64,000 nucleotides of DNA from Octopus vulgaris (taxonomy: Eukaryota): the NCBI GenBank assembly GCA_951406725.2, contig OX597822.1, positions 108,810,001-108,874,000 on the forward strand, read 5' to 3'. Below, piece after piece: positions 11,753-62,455 of this stretch. Every line of letters begins with the position of its first letter. Positions within the stretch are counted from its first letter, which is position 1. Position numbers and translations under genes: made by a program. The notes beneath the pieces are model-generated. The model worked only from the letters and a program-made list of their open reading frames with translations, was not told where the DNA came from and did no database searches.

Positions 11753-12147
11753 TCTTTATATATATAAAAGAAAGGTTGTGTGTCTGTCTACTCCGATTTA
11801 GATTCCTAACTACTCCCACATTTTGCGGTGCAGTTTAAGCAAAACCGGATATCTTATAGTCGTGATTCCTATCAAACTCTTCTGGGTATCAGCGCGCGTC
11901 TACGATGAGTCTACGATTTTAAAAATAATTTACTATCATTTCTTTCCATTTTAATGCATATTTTTTTTAATATAAGTGAAGTAACTCTCTAAAAATGTCT
12001 ACGTTGAGTCAACGATTTTTAAAAAAAATTACCATCATTTTTTTCCCATTTTTAATGCATTTTTTGCTATTTTTTGGCTATAACTCTCTAAAAATTATTT
12101 ATAGTTATTTCCCTTACAACCCGAGCAACGCCGGGCGATACTGCTAG
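11753..12147 (+). mobile_element. Non-autonomous Helitron
   Basis: A|TC 5' end, cccgagcaacgccggg subterminal motif, CTAG|T 3' end, no TSD; same family at 12488, 33735 and 52376. Confidence 0.85.
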
Positions 12148-12487
12148 TTATTTATAAACAGATAAAATTTACTGTTTCTCAATACAGTATTATAACTGAT
12201 AGTCTATTGCTAAATTACTATAATTGTGACTGTGACTGTATGCAGTAGGTTTATGATGTTTCCATTTATATCTTGTCGACTTGCAAATCAGCAAAGACTG
12301 ACCAATGGAATAATTGACCGTATATGCTTGATATGACCCAATTAAGTTTCTTCAACGTCTTATATTCAAGGATTAATGCCAGAAAGAATATTATATTCAT
12401 GTGCACACACACAGCGACATATATATGTATTTGTATATATGTACACACACAAACACATATATGTGTGTACGCTTCCATAAAATGAAA

Positions 12488-12888
12488 TCTTTATATATAA
12501 AAGTGAGGTTGTGTGCTGTCTGTCTCCTACGATTTAGATTCTTAACTACTCCCACATTTTGCGGTGCAGTTTAACCAAAACCGGGTATCTTATAGTCGTG
12601 ATTCATATCGAGCCCTTCTGGGTATTAGCGCACGTCTACAATGAGTCTACGATTTAAAAAAAAACATTGCCATCAATTTTTCCCATTTTTAATGCATTTT
12701 TGGCATATATAAGGGAAGTAACTCTCTAAAAATTTATTATTAAATCTCAGAACGTAAATAGCTACAGTAACCCCCACCCCCCATTTGTGGTTAACCATAT
12801 TGAGATGGCTATTATAATTTACATCTCTAAAAATGCTTATATAGTTATTTCCCTTACAAACCCGATCAACGCCGGGCGATACTGCTAG
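12488..12888 (+). mobile_element. Non-autonomous Helitron
   Basis: A|TC...CTAG|T; near-identical to 52376-52767. Confidence 0.85.
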
Positions 12889-13965
12889 TAACACATGAAT
12901 GAATTGTTGAAAGCTAGACTCGTTGTTGTCTCGAACTCGGAGAAATACGGGTGTACAATAAAATGATTAACCACAGAATTTTTTTCCCGTTTGAATTTAA
13001 CATAAAATAATATATACAATTAGCATTAAATTGCATCCGTTTCTCTATAGTTACATTCTCTTTTCAATTAAGCTAAATGCTAGAAAACAGGAGGTAAATG
13101 TTAGAAAACCATAAATACCAATGGAAGTTATAGATTTCGCAATTCAAAAGATGTAGTATATATCAAATGTAATTAATTTATCCTGAAGTATGCTACAAAA
13201 AGGATGATGAAAATCTGCAGCTAACAATGGAATCCCTAAACAGATAATGCCCATCTTAAATAACAGATTTAGAAGAGAACAACAGTAGGAAATGATGTAA
13301 CACATTTGTAAAAATAATACTTCCTCTGAATGATTGTTCATATTCTCTACCGACCGATCTACTGCAGCAATTAGAAATATATGAGATAAGCAACGGAGGA
13401 AAATACTTATATTCTGGAAAGTCATGTTTTGAAACCAAAAAAAAAAAAAGGAATATAATGAATACGCACAAAAAAAAAAGCGTCTCCACTAATCATTGCG
13501 TTATAAGAGTAAACAGCTGATCGCAGTTTCAGAAACGGATCACCATAATGATGTAATTATTTATCGTTTTGTTTTTGTTGTTTTCGTTTAGTACTCAAGC
13601 ATATAACATTAACATTTAGCATTTCCTTTTCTTGGATAATATGGCTGTGTGTATGTTCGTATCTAGGGAATATACGAATGTGTCTTGATAATAGGAAACA
13701 ACAATGTTAACATTGATGTTAACCAGGAACTCTTCTAATTACGTCTTGTGATGGATCCATTGTTAATTATTTACGTATCTTGAGAATATTATCTACCAAG
13801 AAGATTGAACTTTTACATTAGTAGTTGTTAATTTCTGTAGAGGTAGATCTATGTTGCACTGACATCCTTTTGATCTAAATAGTATCTTCTTAGGTACAAA
13901 ATATTAATCGATGATTAGGCCGCATACATATCATAAATATATTCTTGCCATTTCTTCAGCCATAT

Positions 13966-23552: not shown

Positions 23553-24974
23553 AGAAAGTATGAGAAAATATTAATATCCAAAATAAATAAATAAATAAAT
23601 AATAAACAAGTTGAACGTAACACCTGCTCACAACTTTTACCAAAAATGTAACTCATGTTTACTAACATAACAAGAAAATAGAAAACCTGATCTAAGCCTG
23701 CAGATTCAAAAGCTTGTCGGCAGTCATCCAGCAAAATATGTTGGTACACTCACTATCAAGCAGAAGAACACATAATACGATCTATTCTATACACAAACGT
23801 CACGCAGTGTTGTGATTAAACATCGAAATACATAAAACATGGCCTTGAGAAAAGCACAAATATCAACCAAACTTCGTTTGAATGATTTTATTACGTGTAG
23901 GAGTTATCAACGCATCGCGCATCGCTCGAAAATGGAGGCTTCCATGCGTATATAATTCAATTTCTTAAAATAGTCTCTATGTTTCCTTCTTCTTCCTACC
24001 GGAAGCCTAACTGGAATACTTTTACATGTATTTCAGTCAGAAAATCCAAATTTCATCATCACTCGTGCAAATCGCAGTGGTCGAAATAGAGAAAGAGCTA
24101 TCATTTTTCGGCAAGGTACCTTTGCCTTGGATACAAATGGTATATTTTCTAATGGTGTCTGTCTCACTGTGCAACAAAGTTAATGACAAAACCCTTTTCG
24201 CTATTGATAGGCCTCCTCCCGATTAACTCAGCAATCTCAGCTCCTTTATCCTGCACATCTCTGAGAACATATTACTGATGGTTACATTTAACGTCTTAAT
24301 GTGAACTAAATTACAAATACCATTAAAAGCAACCAGTCAAAGCAATAACAAAACTGCTTTTTAGTATGGTGGATGTATTTGGCTTATTTCGAGCTTGTGC
24401 TTGAGGTAGCAAAACAAGACATGAAAAATTTGCACCTGATATTAACAGACCACCCAGGCTCCATTTGTAACAATTTATTTGAAAAATCTCTTCGTAGGTT
24501 CTAGACGGTACTGTGCAAACTTATGGCCTTGCTTTTTGCTTTTTGAGCCAAAAAAGTAACTAACTAACTTAGTGTTCGGCGTGCCTAAGCCAGATCATCA
24601 CTTCTGCCTCAGTATAAGCATTCGAAATCACCGATCGTCATGAGGCAGACAGGGAGGCAAGTAGAAAAAAATATTATCGACTGTTACTTCACAAATATTT
24701 CCTCTGATAGTGAATCAACATAGCAGCAGTTTGATATTATTGTCACGCTTACACGTTTAAAACACGTTCCTCTGAAACTCACGAAGACAAAGATAAGCAG
24801 ATTCACAAAAGTAAAAAAAAAATATATAGATGATGAGAAAAATGAAAAGTCTGAATTTCATGTAAGCATCAAATCAAATAAGTTCAATTAGCAGTATCTA
24901 CAATGTCTTCTGAGTTGGGAATAGTTATCGTATAAAAAACATGAAAATGTATGTGATCAAGTAAAGGCTGGAAA

Positions 24975-25104
24975 CTCTTTTACTTGTTTCAGTCATTTGA
25001 CTGCGGTCATGCTGGAGCACCGCCTTTAGTCGGGATTTATTATTTATAAGCCCAGTACTTATCCTATCGTCCTCTTTTGCCGAACCGCTATGTGACGGTG
25101 ACAA

Positions 25105-25108
<4 letters not shown>
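24975..25108 (-). mobile_element. SINE family B 3' part (mirror copy at 29033-29190, +)
   Basis: cttttacttgtttcagtcatttgactgcggtcatgctggagcaccgcctttagtcg. Confidence 0.8.
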
Positions 25109-25162
<54 letters not shown>

Positions 25163-26088
25163 TGCAGCAGGGATTTTTGTCAGTGAACAGGTCGCGATCT
25201 TAAAGCGACGAAAATATTTTGACAAAGTAAACTTAAATGTTGAAGTGAATCGAACGGCTTTTGTGTGTTTCTTAAATGACTTACAAACACCTTCCACGCT
25301 GCAATTGTTTTCGTTTCAGCACACGATCTCAGATCAAATCACTTGCTCTGCAACTACATCTCCGTAATATATATATGTGTGTGACATCGTGAGTACCGCT
25401 GGCGATTTTTTTCCTCTGTCTTCCCTTCTCGGGATCTTTCCTTCTCCTATGTTTACGACGAAGAGCTCCCTCGAAACGTTAAACCCTCCTTCTTCCCTTC
25501 TTTCCTCAGCGTCCAATAATATATATGTATATATATATATATATAATATTACAAAGCACACCATCCGCAACACATTTTATCCGACATAACGTTCAATAAA
25601 CCAGACATCATAATGGTGGTTTGTGGGTGACAAAAAAAGACAACGAAACACAAAAATACAGACAAACAGATATTTTCATAATGCTGGTTACTTTTTACAT
25701 AATTACATCTCTCAAGGATTTTTTAATAAATTTATCTGTTATAAAAATTACGACCTCACTGGTTTTCAGTCGATAGAATATGTGTATCTCTTTCTCGGAT
25801 GAAATCTAAATTTAATTATAGGTTCATCGTTAAATAATTTTATCACGACTACCTTAACAGTTTGCTAGAATGAAGCATTATAAGGTTTCTATTTTACATA
25901 AAAGTACTCTAATGTTTTTAGGGCTTAAATTGGTTTCTATATGTCCTTCTTCTCTAACTAGGTACATATATCCCTTTCTAAATTTAAAAACACAATTTTT
26001 ATTTACTATACAAAATATAATAACATATAAATTTTACTAAATTTTGAGTATACATTTCGCCTTTGTACCCTTACTGCCCATTTAGATG

Positions 26089-27316
26089 TTTCGAAAATTT
26101 TCACCGAAAATGTTACCCAAAAATTTTTCGAAAATTTTTGCCGAAAATTTTACCTAAAAATTTTACCCAAAAATTTTCACCGACAATTTTTGCCGAAAAT
26201 TTTACCCAAAAAGTTTTCGAAAATTTTCACCGGTAATTTTTGCCGAAAATTTTACCAAAAATTTTTCGAAAATTTTCACCGATAATTTTTGCCGAACATT
26301 TTAAAAAATCTTTTGAAAATTTTCACCGAAAATGTTACCCAAAAATTTTTTTTCGAAAATTTATGCCGAAAATTATACCCAAAAATTTTTCGAAAATTTT
26401 CACCGATAATTTTTGCCAAAAATTTTACAAAAAAAATTTTTCGAAAATTTTCACCGAATAATTTACCCAAAAATTTTCGAAAATTTTCACTGAAAATTTT
26501 ACCCAAAAATTTTTCGAAAATTTTCACGGAAAATATTACCTAAAAATTTTTGGAAAATTTTCAGCGAAAATGTTACCCTAAAATTTTTCGAAAATTTTTG
26601 CCGAAAATTATACACAAAAATTCTTTGCCAAAAATTTTTGCCAAAAATTTTTGGAAAATTTTCACCGAATAATTTACCCAAAAATTTTCGAAAATTTTCA
26701 CTGAAAATTTTACCCAAAAATTTTCAACAATTTTTCGAAAATTTTACCCAAAATTTTTCTAAATTTTACCCAAAAATTTTTTGAAAATTTTCACCGATAA
26801 TTTTTGCCAAAAATTTTACCTAAAAATTTTCGAAAATTTTCACCGAATAATTTACCCAAAAATTTTCGAAAATTTTCACTGAAAATTTTACCCAAAAATT
26901 TTCAATAATTTTTCGAAAATTTTCACCAAAGATTTTACCCAAAAATTTTTCGAAAATTTTCACCGATAATTTTTGCCGAACATTTTACCCAAAAATTTTT
27001 CGAAAATTTTCAAGGAAAATATTACTTAAAAATTTTTTGAAAATTTTCACCGAAAATTTTACCCAAAAATTTTTCGAAAATTTTTGCCGAAAATTATACC
27101 CAAAAATTTTTCGAAAATTTTACCCAAAACTTTTCAACAATTTTTCGAAAATTTTCACCAAAAATTTTACCAAAAAATTGGTCGAAAATTTTTACCGAAA
27201 ATTTTACACAGAAATTTTCACCAATAATTTTTCGAAAATTTTTGCCGAAAATTTTACCCAAAAATTTTTCGAAAATTTTGACATAATTTTAACCGAAAAT
27301 TTTTGGTTAAATTCTG
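26089..27316 (+). repeat. A4T4 satellite, 10-12 bp period (cgaaaattttc/acccaaaaattt), left arm
   Basis: direct reading. Confidence 0.95.
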
Positions 27317-27482: not shown

Positions 27483-28096
27483 TTTTCGAAAATTTTGACA
27501 GATAATTTTCACCGAAAATTTATGGTTAAAATTTTCTGTGAAAATTTTCAACAAATTTTTAGGTAAAATTTTCCGTGAAAATTTTCGAAAAATTTTTGGG
27601 TAAAATGTTCGGCAAAAATTATCGGTGAAAATTTTCGAAAAATTTTTTGGTAAAATTTTTGGTGAAAATTTTCGAAAAATTGTTGAAAAGTTTTGGGTAA
27701 AATTTTCCAAAAATTTTTATGTAAAATTTTCGAAAAATTTTTGGGTAAAATTTTACGTGAAAAGTTTCGAAAATTTTTGGGTAAATTATTCGGTAAAAAT
27801 TTTCGAAAAATTTTTGGGTAAAATTTTTGGCAAAAATTATCGGTGAAAATTTTCGAAAAATTTTTGGGTATAATTTTCGGCAAAAATTTTCGAAAAATTT
27901 TTGGGTAACATTTTCGGTGAAAATTTTCAAAAGATTTTTAGGCAAAAATTATCGGTGAAAATTTTCGAAAAATTTTTGGGTAAAATTTTCGGCAAAAATT
28001 GTCGGTCAAAATTTTTGGGTTAAATTTTTGGGTAAAATTTTCGGCAAAAATGTTCGAAAAATTTTTGGGTAACATTTTCGGTGAAAATTTTCGAAA
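27483..28096 (-). repeat. A4T4 satellite, right arm (inverted, about half the length of the left)
   Basis: direct reading. Confidence 0.95.
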
Positions 28097-28688
28097 CATC
28101 TAAATGGGCAGTAAGGGTACAAAGGCGAAATGTATACTCAAAATTTAGTAAAATTTATATGTTATTATATTTTGTATAGTAAATAAAAATTGTGTTTTTA
28201 AATTTAGAAAGGGATATATGTACCTAGTTAGAGAAGAAGGATATATATAAACCAATTTATGCCCTAAAAACATTAGAGTACTTTTATGTAAAATAGAAAC
28301 CTTATAATGCTTCATTCTAGCAAACTGTTAAGGTAGTCGTGATAAAATTATTTAACGATGAACCTATAATTAAATTTAGATTTCATCCGAGAAAGAGATA
28401 CACATATTCTATCGACTGAAAACCAGTGAGGTCGTAATTTTTATAACAGATAAATTTATTAAAAAATCCTTGAGAGATGTAATTATGTAAAAAGTAACCA
28501 GCATTATGAAAATATCTGTTTGTCTGTATTTTTGTGTTTCGTTGTCTTTTTTTGTCACCCACAAACCACCATTATGATGTCTGGTTTATTGAACGTTATG
28601 TCGGATAAAATGTGTTGCGGATGGTGTGCTTTGTAATATTATATATATATATATTATTGGACGCTGAGGAAAGAAGGGAAGAAGGAGG

Positions 28689-28723
28689 GTTTAACGTTTC
28701 GAGGGGAGCTCTTCGTCGGAAAC
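28689..28723 (-). ncRNA. Minimal hammerhead-like motif (mirror copy 25451-25484, +)
   Basis: GUUU CCGACGA A GAG-CUCCC-CUC GAAAC GUU AAAC: stem I GUUU/AAAC, palindromic AACGUU; U4C core variant. Confidence 0.45.
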
Positions 28724-30404
28724 ATAGGAGAAGGAAAGATCCCGAGAAGGGAAGACAGAGGAAAAAAATCGCCAGCGGTACTCACGATGTCACACACATA
28801 TATATATTACGGAGATGTAGTTGCAGAGCAAGTGATTTGATCTGAGATCGTGTGCTGAAACGAAAACAATTGCAGCGTGGAAGGTGTTTGTAAGTCATTT
28901 AAGAAACACACAAAAGCCGTTCGATTCACTTTAACATTTAAGGTTACTTTGTCAAAATATTTTCGTCGCTTTAAGATCGCGACCTGTTCACTGACAAAAA
29001 TCCGTGCTGCATCTCATATATATATATATATGCGGTTTGGCACCGTCACTTAGTGGTTCGGCAAAAGAGGACGATAGAATAAGTACTGGGCTTATAAATA
29101 ATAAATCCCAGGGTCGATTTGCTCGACTAAAGGTGGTGCTCCAGCATGGCCGCAGTGAAATTGACTGAAACAAGTAAAAGAGTAAAAGAGTTTCCAGCCT
29201 TTACTTGATCACATACATTTTCATGTTTTTTATACGATAACTATTCCCAACTCAGAAGACATTGTAGATACTGCTAATTGTACTTATTTAATTGGATGCT
29301 TTCATGAAATTCAGACTTTTTCATTTTTCTCATCATCTATATATTTTTTTTTTACTTTTGTGAATCTGCTTATCTTTGTCTTCGTGAGTTTCAGAGGAAC
29401 GTGTTTTAAACGTGTAAACGTGACAATAATATCAAACTGCTGCTATGTTGATTCAATATCAGAGGAAATCTTTGTGAAGTAACAGTCGATAATATTTTTT
29501 TTTCTACTTGCCTCCCTGTATGCCTCATGACGATCGGTGATTTCGAATGCTTATACTGAGGCAGAAGTGATGATCTGGCTTAGGCACGCCGAACACTAAT
29601 TTAGTTAGTTACTTTTTTGGCTCAAAAAGCAAAAAGCAAGGCCATAAGTTTGCACAGTACCGTGTAGAACCTACGAAGAGATTTTTCAAATAAATTGTTA
29701 CAAATGGAGCCTGGGTGGTCTGTTAATATCAGGTGCAAATTTTTCATGTCTTGTTTTGCTACCTCAAGCACAAGCTCGAAATAAGCCAAATACATCCACC
29801 ATACTAAAAAGCAGTTTTGTTATTGCTTTGACTGGTTGCTTTTAATGGTATTTGTAATTTAGTTCACATTAAGACGTTAAATGTAACCATCAGTAATATT
29901 ATTTTTCTATTTAGGCAAGTGAACTGGAAAGCGGTTCATTGTTGTTGATGTTGGAATAGTAGTAGCCTGTTGCTGAGTTGATGCACTTTCTGACCTGTAG
30001 TGGAGTATTTATACTCGCTAAATTTGGATGGAATGGAATAAAGTCAGATAGTGAAGACAATACATGCCTCTGCCTGGTGCTAGCCAACGGCTTATCAAGG
30101 TGGTTGCTGACGTAACGCTTGGCACACATTGTTCAGTACAGTTTCTATATAGTCCTTGTGTTTAAGCACAATATAGAATTATGTTGTATTAACATATATT
30201 TTCAAATACTTATTCCCTTCAATAATAATATTGGTATACTAATTTTTCAGGGATGTTACCCTCAGCATTGACTAATTGCTCGTCGTTGTGAGAAGCGTAC
30301 CAGACATTTGTTACGGCGCTCATTCCATTCGTACCCAGTGTCGATTCATACAGTTATTTGTCATGTTCAGTTGATAGACGAGTATTATACACGATGTTAG
30401 TAAT

Positions 30405-33701: not shown

Positions 33702-33734
33702 TTATTTATTTATGTATCTAGGTATATATATATA

Positions 33735-34372
33735 CTAGCAGTATCGCCCGCCGTTGCTCGGGTTTGTAAGGGAAATAACTATATAAGCATTTTTAGAGAG
33801 TTATAGCCAAAAAATAGCAAAAAATGCATTAAAAATGGAAAAAAATATGATGGTAATTTTTTTGAAAAATCGTTGACTCATCGTAGACATTTTTAGAGAG
33901 TTACTTCCCTTATATAATAGCGAAAAAATGCATTAAAATGGAAAAAAAACAATGGTAAATTTTTTTTTAAATCGTAGACTCATGTAGACGTTTTCTTAGC
34001 CATTTCTGTTTTGGTGTCTTCAAGCCATGAAGTCGTTGTTCTAAAAGAACGCTGGTCTCCTTGACAACGCATTACGACGTTGATTTCCTTACACTCCCTT
34101 CCCCACAGGTGCAGGTGTGAGCGTGGACGCCAACTCCGCCGCCATCGACACACGAAAAATTATGCATTAAAATGGAATAAAAAATGATGTTAAATTATTT
34201 TTTAAATCGTAGACTCATCGTAGCCGCGCGCTAATACTCAGACGGGCTCGATATGAATCACGACTATAAGCTACCCGAATTTGGTTAAACTGCACCGCAA
34301 AATGTGGGAGTAGTTAGGAATCTAAATCGAAGGGGACAGACACTCACACAACTACAGTTTTATATATATAGA
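33735..34372 (-). mobile_element. Non-autonomous Helitron, longer variant with ~160 bp extra internal segment
   Basis: A|CTAGcagtatcgcccgccgttgctcggg at the left end and tatatataGA|T at the right end. Confidence 0.85.
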
Positions 34373-39852: not shown

Positions 39853-39994
39853 ACGACGGGCTTCTCTCAATTTCCGTATACGGAATTCACTCATAAGGCT
39901 TCGGTTAACCCGGAGCTATAGTACAACAAACTTGCCCAAGGTACGACGCACTCGGAATGAACCCGGAATCATTTGGTTGGAAAACAAGCTACTT
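39853..39994 (-). mobile_element. SINE family B body, split from its head (42001-42020) by the 2-kb insertion
   Basis: Minus strand: aagtagcttgttttccaaccaaatgattccgggttcattccg...gaagcccgtcg; head gcaggagtcactgtgtggc. Confidence 0.8.
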
Positions 39995-41994
39995 TTATTC
40001 ATTAAATTTGCCAGGAAGGCAGTACATAGATGTAGCTTTGCGGGCTGGACGTAGACATTGATGGTATAAATGATGGTGATGGAACGAAGATGGTGATGGA
40101 AGAAGACGCAAGCGCCCGCCGACTTCCAAGACAATGTCCTTTTTTCAAAAAAATCAAAAAGTCACAAAATTTCACAAAAGTCACAACGAGGCGATGAACC
40201 TCTTTCTCAATATGATACAATTTTTCTTTTTAAAACATTCAAAATGTTCAAGCCAGCCGGCCGACCTGCGCTTTTGCTTTATCGAGGCAATCATTCTTTG
40301 TCGGGCCACGCCATTCAGGTATAAACTGAAAGGAGTCCTCCGGGAAGGAATTCACGATCCTGCACAGATCGCTATCCCATAGGACCTCCGCAGCCACCTG
40401 CGAAGGCCACTCAGGGTCCTCCGTGCAGGACCGAAGTCCCTCCCATTGCCCTCTCCCTTCCATTTTACCTATCTCGTTTTCAAGCGTTCCTCCTTTGTGG
40501 AAGACGACCACAAATTGATCCTCCGGCAGCACATCCGCCTGAGGAGGCTTGGGAGACGCCGTCCGAGTGTTACAATCCGCCGGCGGCGTCGCTTTTCTAT
40601 TCTTTTTTTTCCCTTTTTTTACCTGGGCCGCGGGAGGGTGAGGTTCCTGTATTGCACACAACGGGTCCTCCTTTTCTTCCGCAGCTCCCGGGTCTTTCGG
40701 TGGGTCACCATTTTTGCCCATCTTTCTTTTCTTTCTTGAGGATGTAGCAATTTCCTCGTTCTGTTTCTCTCCCTCCATTGGGGGGAGCAGGGAGAGACTC
40801 TAACACTTACCGTTCCAGGATCCTACTTTGGTCCCTGGGGCAGTTCTTCTTAATGTGGCCGGTCTCCAGGCACAGGTGACACTTGGGGGGTGTCCCTCAA
40901 GCATCACCGGATACCTGGACCCAGGCATCCTCAAGAAATCTGGAAAAACCAGACTTTTGGCTGATTGGGTCCATAGGGTCAAAACAGCTCTCGACCCCAT
41001 CCAATAAGCCGCAGGCAACATTTTTACATTTAGCAGCTTGGCACTGCTACCACCTAGACCCCTGCGGATAGAGTCCTCTATCCACTCGGGCTCAATTCCG
41101 GGTGGTAGGCCGCAGATCCAAGCCCTCAATAGTTTTTCTCCCATATAGTTTGGGAGAAACAATATTTCTTTGCCCTCAAGGGGCTGGCTTGCAAAGTCGC
41201 AAGCTTCTTTTGGGGAGTCAAATAGCAACTAGACCGTTGCGTATTTCACTCCCCGTGAGATAAATTTAACGGCTAGCAGGTAGTCCGCCAGCTCGTTTAA
41301 AATTGTGGCCTTCGGGAAGACTGCTATGGTGTCGAGCGACTTCGAATAAGTCCTCAACACCGCGGTCTTCCTTTCCAGCTCTTTTAAATATTTTTTGGGA
41401 GGTGTTAGGTCCCACACAATAAATTCCTTCGCCATTTCGAAACGGAATCCAATTAAAGTTGAAAAGTGTAAGAAATAAATAAGATACAAAAGGGAGAAGG
41501 GAAAACACAACAGAAAAGAAGAATTACACTAAAAATAACAGTTCAAAAGAGTTCTTTTTAAAAATAAACGATAGCTGGAAGAGAGTTCAAATTCAGCAAA
41601 GGAATTTTTTTTTTTTTGGCCGAAAGGGCACTCCTGGCCAAACGTCCAATTGGTGTAATACCTTGCAAAAACAGTCCCTGGTTTATCCTTGGTACTTCTT
41701 GGTATATCCAACACAAAGGCAATTAATTTTTGAGGAGGGGCTACGCCTCCTCAAAAACACAATTCTCACTGCAAAGTGAGTCTTTACGCTCGACCACAGG
41801 CAGGAAAATGTCTGGAGCAAAGTGTAGTCTATTATAGGCTAAAAAATAATTAAATGCAAAGCAATAAACGTCACCAAGCCCTTAAAAAATATACAACAAA
41901 CGCCTACCTGTAGTCGAGTCTCAAAATTCAATAATTCACGCCGAAAGACGTGACATCAGGCAGCAGCCAAAAAACACGTCCGAACACGTCCGAA
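39995..41994 (-). mobile_element. Complete ~2-kb ORF1-only non-LTR element inserted in a SINE, TSD ctactt
   Basis: 5' ttcggacgtgttcggacgtgtttt; single ORF; ~250-bp 3' UTR ending aatgaataaaa; TSD 39989-39994 / 41995-42000; no RT or endonuclease sequence. Confidence 0.8.
40248..41435 (-). pseudogene. gag/ORF1-like protein with CCHC knuckle, copy 3
   Basis: MAKEFIVW..ELERKTAVLRTYSKSLD..VKFISRGVKYATV*LLFDS..FLPNYMG..GLPPGIEPEWI..MLEGHP/KCHLCLETGHIKKNC..basic linker..DQFVVVFHK..DPEWPSQVAAEV; one in-frame stop and frameshifts. Confidence 0.82.
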
Positions 41995-42299
41995 CTACTT
42001 GCCACACAGTGACTCCTGCAAAAATATGTAAAGCAAAAATAAAGATGGAGATAAAGATTTGATAATTGTTAGAACAGCTTCAGTAACACTTCACTTCGAA
42101 TATCATTACTCATAAATATTTCGTGTGGTCCATTACACGAGATTGTATCAGTATGCATAACTGCAAAAATAGAAGGGATCGTATCTCCGCGGGCGCTTAT
42201 CATAATCAGTTAACATACATGATACACACACACACACACAAACGCTCACAACACAAATACACACACATACTCACACACACAAGCACACACACACACATA

Positions 42300-42345
42300 C
42301 TCGCAGAAATACCCGGCGTTGCACGGGTTAAAGAGAATAATGAAA
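42300..42345 (-). mobile_element. Short Helitron-type 3' end
   Basis: a|ctcgcagaaatacccggcgttgcacggg; CTAG altered by one base. Confidence 0.5.
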
Positions 42346-42349
42346 TTAT

Positions 42350-43310
42350 CCCACCCAGGCAGTGGTAAAAAGATATGGAGGAGGGGATGGTAGTGATTAG
42401 AACTTACTCTAAAGTTCTTGATACCATCACCGTCTTCCCAGAACCAACGATAAAAATAGAACTGAAAGACTATTTGTCTTCTGTGAAATACATATCCCGC
42501 GGTGTCAAGCATGCAACCGTACGGTTATCCGTCGAAGGACCCTAAGGCTTCGTGAGGTGAGGGAGAGACTCCGGGCAAAGCGGAAGAGCTCCACACTCCC
42601 GAAGTCAGGAAGAAAAGATAAAAAAGAAAGAAGAACGAGCCATTGCAGATCGACGATGATGAGCCGTCTGTATGTCCCGAAGTTGTGCCACAGAAAGTGG
42701 AAGAGACGTAAGATAAGTAATTCTTCATCTTTTTCTACAAAATAGTAGAACATAAAGAGATCGTAGATATGGTCTTCACACGGAATCCCGAATGGCCTCC
42801 ACAGATAGTTGTGGAAGTCATAAGGTTTACCTGTGTGGGAAAAGCTTAAAAGATTTAAAGAGGAATGTCGCATATGGCCGGGTGGCCCTAACACGACGTA
42901 TGCCTCGTACATGAATGAGGCATGGGAAATTGCGGGGTACAGGAACTGAAGCAGCATTGAAGATAATGATGGTTATATTGATGTATATATCGATGAGTAG
43001 GAGTGGAAAAAGCCTCGTTAGAGGATTTGAAACTTTACCTTATTGCATTATTTCTAGTGGTTTATAACCTCAATTGTGTGTTTAAAAAAACATTTTAAGT
43101 AAGAGGTTTTAGTGCCTCGTTTTTGTAAGAGGTTTGAAACCTCATACTGATTTTATAAAAAAAGAAAATATGTTTTCGAGAAAAATCCAATCGACGGATG
43201 TTGGGTTTCCTATCTCATTTATTCATTTTTTTAAATTTTCATTCATTAATGTGTTTGTCCAGCCCGCAGATACTCTGTATACTGCTTTTATGACAAATAG
43301 AATGAAAAAA
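42350..43310 (+). mobile_element. 5'-truncated, internally deleted ORF1-like element, copy 4
   Basis: KDMEEGMVVIRTYSKVLDTITVFP..ELKDYLSSVKYISRGVKHATVRL joined to FFIFFYK..NPEWPPQIVVEV; 3' end gtccagcccgca..tactgc..caaat..aatgaaaaaa shared with copy 3. Confidence 0.8.
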
Positions 43311-43690
43311 AAGAAGCTTGATTCTCACTTACATGGTTCTAGGTTCAGTCCCACTGCATGGCACTTTAGGCAAGTGTCTTCTACTGTAGCCCCGGCGGAC
43401 CATAGCCTTTTGAGTGGATTTGTTTGACAGAAAGTGAAAGAGGTCCGTTGCGCGCGCACACACACACACACACACGCAACCACACGCATATATATATGTG
43501 TGTGTGTGCTCGTCCCCTTACCATCGCTGTTTATTCAACCGATGTTGGTGTGTTAACTTAGCGTTTCGGCAAAAATCCCTATAGAATAAGTACTAGGCTT
43601 ACAAAGAATATGTCCTGGGCTGGACTTGTTCGAATAAAGGCGGTACTCCAGTACGGGCTGCATTCAAATGACTGAAACAAATAAAAGAAT
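43311..43690 (+). mobile_element. SINE family B lacking its first ~20 nt
   Basis: aagaagcttgattctcacttacatggttctaggttcagtcccactgc...gactgaaacaaataaaaga. Confidence 0.85.
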
Positions 43691-52375: not shown

Positions 52376-52767
52376 TCTTTATATATAAAAGTGAGGTTGT
52401 GTGCTGTCTGTCTCCTACGATTTAGATTCCTAACTACTCCCACAATTTGTGGTGCAGTTTAACCAAAACTGGGTATCTTATAGTCGTGATTCATATCGAG
52501 CCCTTCTGGGTATTAGCGCGCGTCTACGATGAGTCTATCATTTAAAAAAAAATTACCATCAATTTTTCCCATTTTTAATGCATTTTTGGCATATATAAGG
52601 GAAGTAACTCTCTAAAAATTTATTATTAAATCTCAGAACGTAAAAAGCTACATTAACACCCCTTTGTGGTTAGCCATATTGAGATGGCTATTATACTTTA
52701 CATCTCTAAAAATGCTTATATAGTTATTTCCCTTACAAACCCGAGCAACGCCGGGCGATACTGCTAA
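52376..52767 (+). mobile_element. Non-autonomous Helitron
   Basis: A|TC...CTAA|T; same family as 12488-12888. Confidence 0.85.
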
Positions 52768-53846
52768 TCTTATATATATCTGTGTGTGTGCATGTGTGCG
52801 CGCGCGTGCACATGGGTCTGTTTGTGTGTATATATATATATACATACATACCTGTATACATATATATATATATATATATATATGTAATGTTGTATGTATG
52901 TGTGTATATATAGCAAGTGCTACGTGGGAGATATATAAGTTAGTCATTCAGAAACACATTAAAACCGTAAAGTTTCACTTAAACATTTATTAGTAATGTA
53001 ATGTGAGAATGATGGCATATACTATTAAGATCTCCAAATGCTACCACACTACTTAATTCCCGATCCGAATAATTTTATCAAATGTACTCACATAGTAAGG
53101 TTTGTCTTGTCAAACTGGAAAACACAACCTTCACCGCTTTGCATAGCGTTATGTTTTGGACTGTTCCTGAAATACTGCTCAGAGAGACATGACATGATAT
53201 AATATTCTGCGAATTTAGTGTATCTCTACAGCCTGAAACTATTAGTCGAACATGTTAAAACCCTCCGCGTATATGTATGTGTGTGCAAGTGTGTCTGCAG
53301 ACGTGTTTGGTGATGCAAACAAGAAATTACAACTCAAAACACGAGCATGTGTGTGTGTGTGTGTGTGTTAATACAAAGTGATAGACACTCACACAAGGAG
53401 AAAGGAAAAGACAGAGTAACATAAAAAAATACTAGGTATACAGAATGTAGTCATATGAAATGTTGCGTACATAGTGAGACAATGAAATCAAAACATATTT
53501 TGACACTTGCCTTGCATACTTGATTACTTGTGACGAAAACAAGCATACTTGTGTATGTTTATGACCTTACACGGACTCAGAAACACCCGTATGATGAAGT
53601 TGTACTATACTCAGTAGAAAACACTGGACACATGACTCAGTAGAGAACGCTTTTCAGAGATATTTACAACTTGAATACGAAAAGAAAATAAGAAGAGTAG
53701 AGGACGTATTGTAGATTTTAAAATGTAATGGGAGAGAATTGGTAGAAAGGAACTGTGGGAGGACTGAGGGGCAAGTTAGGTAATACAAGACATCAGCTGA
53801 CGGTTCAAAATTTAAAAAACATTGCCTGTAAACATAAGATTTTGAT

Positions 53847-62057: not shown

Positions 62058-62455
62058 TTAATGTGGTTTTAGAGTCAAGTTTTCGCGACGTGTCCTTTTC
62101 AGCTCCATGAGGCTGTTGCTCCCTTCCAAAACGATCGCTGCGAGAATCCACCACAGGTGTGCCTCTGGTGGTATCGCAGCGATCTTTATGCACCCCATCC
62201 TCCTTCCTATATAGAATGGATAGAACAGATATTTTTCACCCCGACAGGGAACCACGGAGTGTTTGCCGTCCAGAGTTTCAGATTTAAAGAGCACTGAATT
62301 TCCCGCAAACTATTTTTCCCTCGCTTATATACAAAATGGCGGCTATTATTTCTTTCAGTGCCCTTTCTACGTCTGCCTGGGTAACCATCTCTGGCCGCTT
62401 CTTTTTTACGGAAACGAATCTGTAAAACACTTTTCTTTTTTCTTTCTGTCAACAC
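62058..62455 (-). pseudogene. Fragment of the same ORF1-like family, copy 5
   Basis: VERALKEIIAAILYISEG..VLFKSE..KHSVVP..YLFYPFYIGRR..IKIAAIPPEAHLWWILAAI aligns with FLPNYMG..GLPPGIEPEWI of copy 3. Confidence 0.65.

Follow-up and report, generated by a model that had tools for sequence, protein, structure and literature searches.

Two decayed half-LINEs at one base of an octopus SINE, likely pasted there by a complete L1/Tx1-group LINE sharing the site

Several long interspersed nuclear elements (LINEs) of the Tx1 clade insert into other mobile DNA. Tx1L enters Tx1D in Xenopus, the crocodilian Tx1-Mar enters Mariner-N4_AMi and Tx1-9_AMi enters Harbinger (PMC4494074, PMC6719617), Tx1-8_Crp and Tx1-4_AMi, likewise crocodilian, enter long terminal repeat (LTR) elements (PMC4494074), and insertion of Tx1 into Tx1d is cited as a safe-haven strategy (PMC6719617). 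The Tx1 families directed at Mariner, Harbinger and LTR elements come with SINEU riders and tandem copies, and target-derived 5' ends are described both for SINEU-2, with extensions from Mariner-N4, and for R2 elements, with 28S-derived ends (PMC4494074). Non-autonomous LINEs carrying only the first open reading frame (ORF1) include HAL1 (half-L1), HeT-A and Ag-Sponge (PMC5786205). Here, we analyzed a 64,000-nt stretch of the Octopus vulgaris genome (contig OX597822.1, positions 108,810,001 to 108,874,000; hereafter the window), in which two elements, referred to as copies 3 and 4, adjoin short interspersed nuclear element (SINE) sequence. We hold it highly probable that these are two decayed ORF1-only half-LINEs at one fixed SINE base, likely pasted there by the endonuclease (EN) and reverse transcriptase (RT) of a complete L1/Tx1-group LINE that shares the site.

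Copy 3 (39995..41994, minus strand) is a near full-length 2.0-kb ORF1-only non-LTR element, 89-92% identical over its whole length to five full-length relatives, and copy 4 (42328..43310, plus strand) belongs to another ORF1-only subfamily, is disrupted at its 5' end and carries an internal deletion; it is 80-87% identical to its relatives in colinear pieces, with a gap of ~530 nt relative to L027. Both are decayed and represent two subfamilies of a ~2-kb ORF1-only non-LTR element, at ~8-15% divergence from their nearest relatives. The initial annotation of the window had placed both 3' ends at one SINE position, and both junctions are present as it described: copy 3 ends at 39995 and is followed by AAGTAGCTTG from 39994, and copy 4 ends at 43310 and is followed by AAGAAGCTTG from 43311. 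Both flanks are the body of one SINE family with an identical start position, 77% and 80% identical, respectively, to an uninterrupted copy. The SINE body hosting copy 3 occupies 39854..39994 (minus) and aligns from SINE position 27, and the body and tail hosting copy 4 occupy 43311..43679 (plus), belong to the AAGAAG subfamily and lack a head. The two elements stand back to back with ~330 bp between them (41994-42328). Close opposite-facing pairs of this kind recur at L206 and L003.

The 5' junction of copy 3 is retained. A SINE head with a putative A-box-like motif (42001..42019, minus; 88% identity to the SINE head) and another AAGTAG (41995..42000, minus) lie directly 5' of the element, and the family's usual leader is missing. 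Together with the AAGTAG that begins the 3' flank (39989..39994, minus), this arrangement indicates that one SINE was split and that six bases, AAGTAG, were duplicated. The 5' junction of copy 4 is lost, and the end of another repeat adjoins it. ORF1 of copy 3 (40248..41435, minus) is broken by an early in-frame stop and by a frameshift near the CCHC knuckle. The conserved 3' tail of copy 3 (39995..40050, minus; gtccagcccgc ... GCC-N5-GGC ... A-rich end), whose last ~27 nt resemble the tail of the LINE described below, is a putative recognition signal; the tail of copy 4 lies at 43257..43310 (plus). No match to an ORF2 was found within the window, and neither copy 3 nor copy 4 encodes an endonuclease or RT; the site specificity must therefore come from a partner LINE.

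The insertion site within the SINE reads AAG(T/A)AGCTTGCT. Genome-wide, the exact junction AATAAAGTAGCTTGCTWACC occurs 850 times, with none for the reversed control, and a separate pattern for a second SINE subfamily yielded 193 further exact junctions, far beyond the only two events on which the initial annotation had drawn. A tail-motif pattern (GTCCAGCCCGYAN{0,3}GCTAC) gave 750 exact genome matches (control, 0), of which the first 100 by position, minus eight in or beside one separately examined array and the last four, provided 88 ORF1-only 3' ends for scoring. Among these, 74 lie at the SINE site, 65 in a SINE (62 recognized automatically by site plus SINE body; L322, L342 and L348 by eye) and nine in tandem, and the remaining 14 comprise ten ends outside SINEs with an AAGT-like start, (AGT)n and (TAGG)n microsatellites included, and four unrelated ones. 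When the end of copy 4 without its flank served as the query, 30 of 40 scored loci, itself included, gave 24 with site and SINE body, one with the site and other sequence, two microsatellites starting AAGTAG and three unrelated flanks. The corresponding 30 of 40 loci for copy 3, again including itself, comprised 18 SINE bodies (17 automatic, L059 by eye), six tandem junctions, one antisense copy at the site, one antisense copy elsewhere in the SINE, three AAGTAG-like starts outside a SINE and one unrelated flank. Random insertion would, by simple arithmetic, hit that base and strand with a chance of ~2 in 10,000 even with a million SINE copies.

Truncation at the 5' end is variable around a fixed 3' end, and target duplications are found. 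Off-target copies (L035, L048, L054 and L005) likewise show 15-18-bp duplications beginning with AAGTAG or a near variant, pointing to a DNA motif read by the endonuclease, and one insertion (L041) lies antisense at the same near-palindromic SINE site. The initial annotation had allowed that microhomology between the A-tail and aag could contribute; this is not the cause, as 5' junctions mark the same base. It had also asked whether parent tRNA genes are hit: 0/30 top tRNA loci, a non-exhaustive sample of Lys, Thr, Arg, Cys, Ala and a few others only, hold the site at up to two mismatches, and four three-mismatch matches lie at other positions.

The partner LINE was found through the junction pattern rather than through zf-RVT matches; ORF2 lies upstream in five of the first 30 junctions examined. 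The top zf-RVT matches, considered as candidates, belong to sister families instead, with 1/30 at the SINE site. The complete element, L201, spans 5,439 nt. Its ORF1 bears zf-CCHC at the cut-off, and its ORF2 bears PF03372, PF00078 and PF13966 (EN, RT and zf-RVT), all above cut-off, giving the two ORFs, apurinic/apyrimidinic-type (APE) endonuclease, RT and C-terminal zinc domain of the L1 group. Human L1 ORF2p is the closest solved protein to this ORF2 (E 1e-66), and R2 matches at E 1e-19. The 30 fetched top matches of L201 are all at the site (28 within SINE bodies, two in tandem), and 43 of 45 further LINE ends genome-wide match it, the other two showing only an AAGTAG-like start (the pattern behind these 45 does not capture ends whose 13th flank base is A). 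With 74/88 ORF1-only ends and 30/30 LINE loci at one site, the 3' flanks that the initial annotation had proposed to survey genome-wide are not random, its idea of SINE-targeted insertion is supported, and the share lies above the >20% of one flank type by which a non-LTR retrotransposon is called target-specific (PMC4494074).

The near-identity of the LINE copies suggests recent or ongoing activity. Four DNA runs examined at the young insertion L201 contained one element-skipping joint, not necessarily from L201; SINE contigs from across the genome swamp the signal. The partner likely belongs to the Tx1 clade. Homologue searches returned no named Tx1 reference, and a quick-method tree holds only octopod and other, mostly invertebrate, relatives; among protein relatives with a species name, the best come from Octopus sinensis and Argonauta hians. 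L1-Tx1 elements are reported as active in Octopus vulgaris (PMC13282606) and are also listed in a second octopus repeat paper (PMC8967140). Target analysis is absent from the passages of both that were covered, and neither the word 'target' nor 'nested' occurs in PMC13282606.

Full-length ORF1-only units measure 2.0-2.25 kb between two target copies and carry no ORF2, the organization of a half-LINE. Their ORF1 has been kept functional, as indicated by intact ORF1s of 413-414 aa in L208 and by a nonsynonymous-to-synonymous rate ratio (dN/dS) of 0.11-0.18 in the core, where dS is near saturation. Intact ORF1-only relatives show weak zf-CCHC matches, and the predicted ORF1 model contains two RRM-like domains plus a knuckle, with a disordered C-terminal half. 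Residues 10-200 of the model mostly reach a predicted local distance difference test score (pLDDT) of 70-90, and Foldseek matched RRM pairs at E 1e-5 with low TM-scores. The RRM-plus-CCHC composition of L1-group ORF1 is found as zf-CCHC in the partner and as an RRM fold predicted in the homologous ORF1-only protein. An ORF1 protein search returned only two Octopus sinensis proteins.

The only DNA common to the half-LINEs and the LINE is the last ~27 nt of the tail. In a young ORF1-only family (98.4-100% identical, four loci), 23 of the last 27 nt are as in the LINE, and this family shares an array with the young LINE. Judged from the sequences, the shared site, the ~27-nt tail and an overlap in age make it likely that the partner LINE mobilizes the ORF1-only elements in trans. 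Other ORF2-bearing tails also occur at the SINE site (L147, L149, L271 and L283). The half-LINE origin is likely independent of mammalian or other named HAL1/L1 ORF1s.

Several observations weigh against this account or limit its reach. The shared tail is short and AT-rich, reaching E 0.003 in the best family, and copies 3 and 4 gave no blastn tail match to the LINE; both copies are of greater age and probably owe their insertion to earlier relatives of the partner. The ORF1-only elements form a separate clade (100/100) with 24-29% ORF1 identity to the partner, and they are therefore an ancient lineage that did not arise from L201 by deletion. One truncated copy (L147) lacks a duplication, and the leader variants discussed below cluster only partly on the element tree. 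Moreover, ~16% of the ends (14/88) lie outside a SINE, which amounts to a strong preference and not to absolute specificity.

The host is a high-copy short repeat with a head, a body and a tail. Its exact empty sites number at least 53,176 by matches to a 33-nt stretch and 7,627 by a second (TTCCC-type) pattern. It is presumably derived from a tRNA and probably corresponds to the octopus SINE OR2 (Ohshima and Okada 1994). The putative A-/B-box-like head, body, microsatellite, tail and tens of thousands of copies agree with OR2. The head of one copy had no Rfam tRNA match at E 10, and ARAGORN calls at a relaxed threshold were weak and inconsistent. Median pairwise identity is 93% for the TAAC variant (n=9), 89% for TTAC (n=20) and 80% for TTCCC (n=14), in sets that were chosen differently. 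Near the B-box-like motif of this SINE, two unrelated elements (L035 and L102) lie antisense, at a possible second site.

Among the full-length LINE 5' ends scored, 21 of 21 finish a target-like stretch with CTAACC, including 12 with a different 3'-flank variant, which indicates that some target-like bases are element-borne; the leader of full-length copies is such an element-borne target mimic. A copy truncated by 9 nt (L227) shows a plain 10-bp duplication. The youngest elements have a TAAC leader and one older copy (L281) a TTCCC leader, and these variants, set beside the ages of the SINE variants, offer a thin hint of co-evolution. At one locus (G000:C7:13452001-13492000; L121-L124), a 40-kb head-to-tail stack that extends further joins mixed ORF1-only subfamilies and LINEs through 16 target junctions, pointing to sequential insertion. 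Another (G000:C1:223689019-223719000) holds seven 2-kb ORF1-only copies (99.2-100% identical, neighbours most alike) and one complete LINE in a single SINE, and may include local duplication. A separate junction (L170) consists of a SINE head, an inverted copy of an element's 3' end and then a normal end, 75 nt in total.

We propose that the partner ORF2 would bind the shared 3' tail of half-LINE RNA in trans, and that its APE endonuclease would nick the bottom strand at T^AAG(T/A)AG and then prime reverse transcription, with AAGTAG as the putative core of recognition and CTTGCT possibly adding preference. A second cut up to ~17 nt further on would create the duplication. Full-length RNA, which would start within AAGTAGCTTGCTAACC with a short target copy (...CTAACC), could pair with the cut end and give a precise 5' join, and the leader would rebuild the target, so that later elements may stack in tandem. 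The half-LINE would retain ORF1 because the ORF1 protein would package its own RNA.

A different and, in our judgment, unlikely account holds that nothing specific to the SINE is recognized, the endonuclease reading a short AAGTAG-like motif of which the SINE is simply the commonest carrier. The ten AAGT-like starts among the 14 non-SINE ends, microsatellites among them, agree with it, as does the abundance of exact empty SINE sites. However, chance alone should place the hexamer at millions of non-SINE positions in a 2.8-Gb genome, yet the 74/88 and 30/30 ends at the site have the longer CTTGCT extension (a AAGTAGCTTGCT-like 12-mer); recognition must go beyond six bases or depend on context.

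It is improbable that RNA or the RNA polymerase III (Pol III) machinery guides targeting, whether by a leader or read-through RNA pairing with the site or by TFIIIC/TFIIIB recruiting the complex. Such guidance would accord with the element-borne target mimic at 5' ends, with a site one base past the A-box-like motif and with leader variants that look like those of the SINE subfamilies, L281 having TTCCC and the youngest families TAAC. Yet the target and not the RNA supplies the 3' junction letters, leaderless truncated copies are equally precise at the 3' end, and both off-target and antisense insertions keep to the DNA motif. Moreover, a tRNA-gene B box occurs in 0/14 non-SINE flanks, and the only one found in ten others appears to be part of another SINE-like repeat.

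The initial annotation had itself raised the objection that the SINE body might be a fixed part of the element's 3' end; in a wider form of this reading, the head would travel with the element too. The SINE body does follow most 3' ends, and a few target-like bases really are element-borne at the 5' end, but we regard this explanation as extremely improbable. It is refuted by the comparison of LINE copies, with a mean pairwise identity of 99.8% (last 330 nt), with the SINE bodies that host them (91.2%), and also by truncated copies of many lengths, which rejoin the SINE head with 4-17-bp duplications. In addition, the SINE heads bear individual changes, off-target copies have no SINE, and the host subfamily sets the junction letters: in TTCCC-type hosts, AAGAAG stands at the junction in 90/100 (the first 100) versus 82/100 empty sites (Fisher p 0.15). 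These letters identify the 3' junction as host DNA, and an element-borne 3' AAGTAG was rejected on that ground. The SINE was also considered as a rider of its own attacker and rejected; the two have no significant common sequence (best E 0.24).

That copies 3 and 4 go back to a single insertion, later duplicated or inverted locally, as their back-to-back position and the local amplification of the family (seven near-identical copies in one array) might suggest, has a negligible probability: the initial annotation was right to deny a simple duplication, which is refuted by membership in different subfamilies, blastn similarity confined to 69 nt of the 3' tail (75%) and only 55% ORF1 identity across 67 aa, and the hosts are different SINE variants (AAGTAG versus AAGAAG).

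Compared with the described systems in so far as the cited texts cover them, the partner and its half-LINEs resemble target-specific Tx1-clade LINEs in their L1-group organization, APE endonuclease and single preferred site within a mobile element, and share with them duplications of ~16 bp, tandem copies sandwiching the duplication and non-autonomous riders (there, SINEU) that use the same target. They differ in that the target is a SINE, the base is exact in 30/30 young copies and the non-autonomous riders, which carry ORF1 only, code for protein. The partner is also very recent, some of its copies reaching 100% identity, against 85-87% identity to consensus for Tx1-Mar. Like HAL1, HeT-A and Ag-Sponge, the octopus half-LINEs are ~2 kb long, encode one ORF1-like protein under purifying selection, lack ORF2 and presumably depend on a partner; unlike the HAL1 kind, they have a base-exact target in a dispersed repeat, occur as many subfamilies in arrays and share only 24-29% ORF1 identity with the partner at their site. 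The leader recalls R2 and SINEU-2 in placing target-derived sequence at the element's 5' end, but spans only ~7-11 nt and belongs to an APE-type element. A mechanism of 5' joining is known for R2.

The SINE-targeting system is real and well supported, and is a variation on the known theme of mobile elements that hide within other mobile elements. That an abundant SINE serves such a parasite as a safe landing site, as the initial annotation had proposed, would be an evolutionary reading of the pattern. Our literature search turned up no LINE described as inserting at an exact base of a SINE, although Repbase, subscription papers and supplements lay outside its coverage and may describe one; PMC8869645 makes no mention of SINEs. 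A SINE joins the sequences that Tx1-like LINEs are known to hit at an exact base, with protein-coding half-LINEs apparently inheriting the specificity. The intact, near-identical partner and its differently targeted relatives make the endonuclease residues that set a LINE's target, and full-length 5' joining, testable. Genome annotation is affected as well: SINEs that are split and 2-kb elements that are stacked will yield false composite families through mis-assembly, and remnants of ORF1 are called host genes; one relative is an annotated uncharacterized Octopus sinensis protein.

In the ORF2 tree, a sister clade is 64-65% identical to the partner, with a support of 99 in the Shimodaira-Hasegawa-like approximate likelihood ratio test (SH-aLRT, quick tree). 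One ORF2 sister family (L130, L134 and G000:C2:73040001-73070000) has a fixed 3' flank, GGAAGCGACACCTACTG, in 7/7 junctions at three loci; this flank lies inside a different repeat, some copies of which are inverted, and tandem sister copies occur as well. We take the repeat to be Penelope-like. L114 and L120 share another flank, L103 has a third, and other LINE families show mixed flanks. It is possible, at somewhat less than even probability, that octopods harbour a still-living radiation of Tx1-like LINEs whose endonuclease has been repeatedly retargeted (to the SINE here, to another repeat in the sister family), with heritable 5' target mimics that give precise joins, rebuild the site and track the turnover of SINE subfamilies, and on which an old, ORF1-only parasite clade rides. 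If true, this would be a three-tier, base-exact chain of parasites, and it would offer a natural series from which the specificity code of APE endonucleases could be read. A further sister LINE family (L091-L107, L118) ends in CCCCTTGTGGGTAATAAAGAAAT, and a similar tail follows L098. We presume CCCCTTGTGGGTAATAAAGAAAT to be the tail of another octopus SINE, whose partner this family may be.

Elsewhere in the window, further L1/Tx1-like ORF1 remnants lie at 1128-1816 and 62133-62324 (both minus). The repeat end adjoining copy 4 at ~42296-42327 belongs to another element, presumably Helitron-like, whose terminus (TACTAGCAG...CCCGGCGTTGC) recurs at 2623-2652, 12118-12148, 12859-12890, 33729-33760 and 52738-52770. 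Finally, 24269-26091 and 28094-29899 form an inverted duplication of ~1.8 kb with 92-99% identity.

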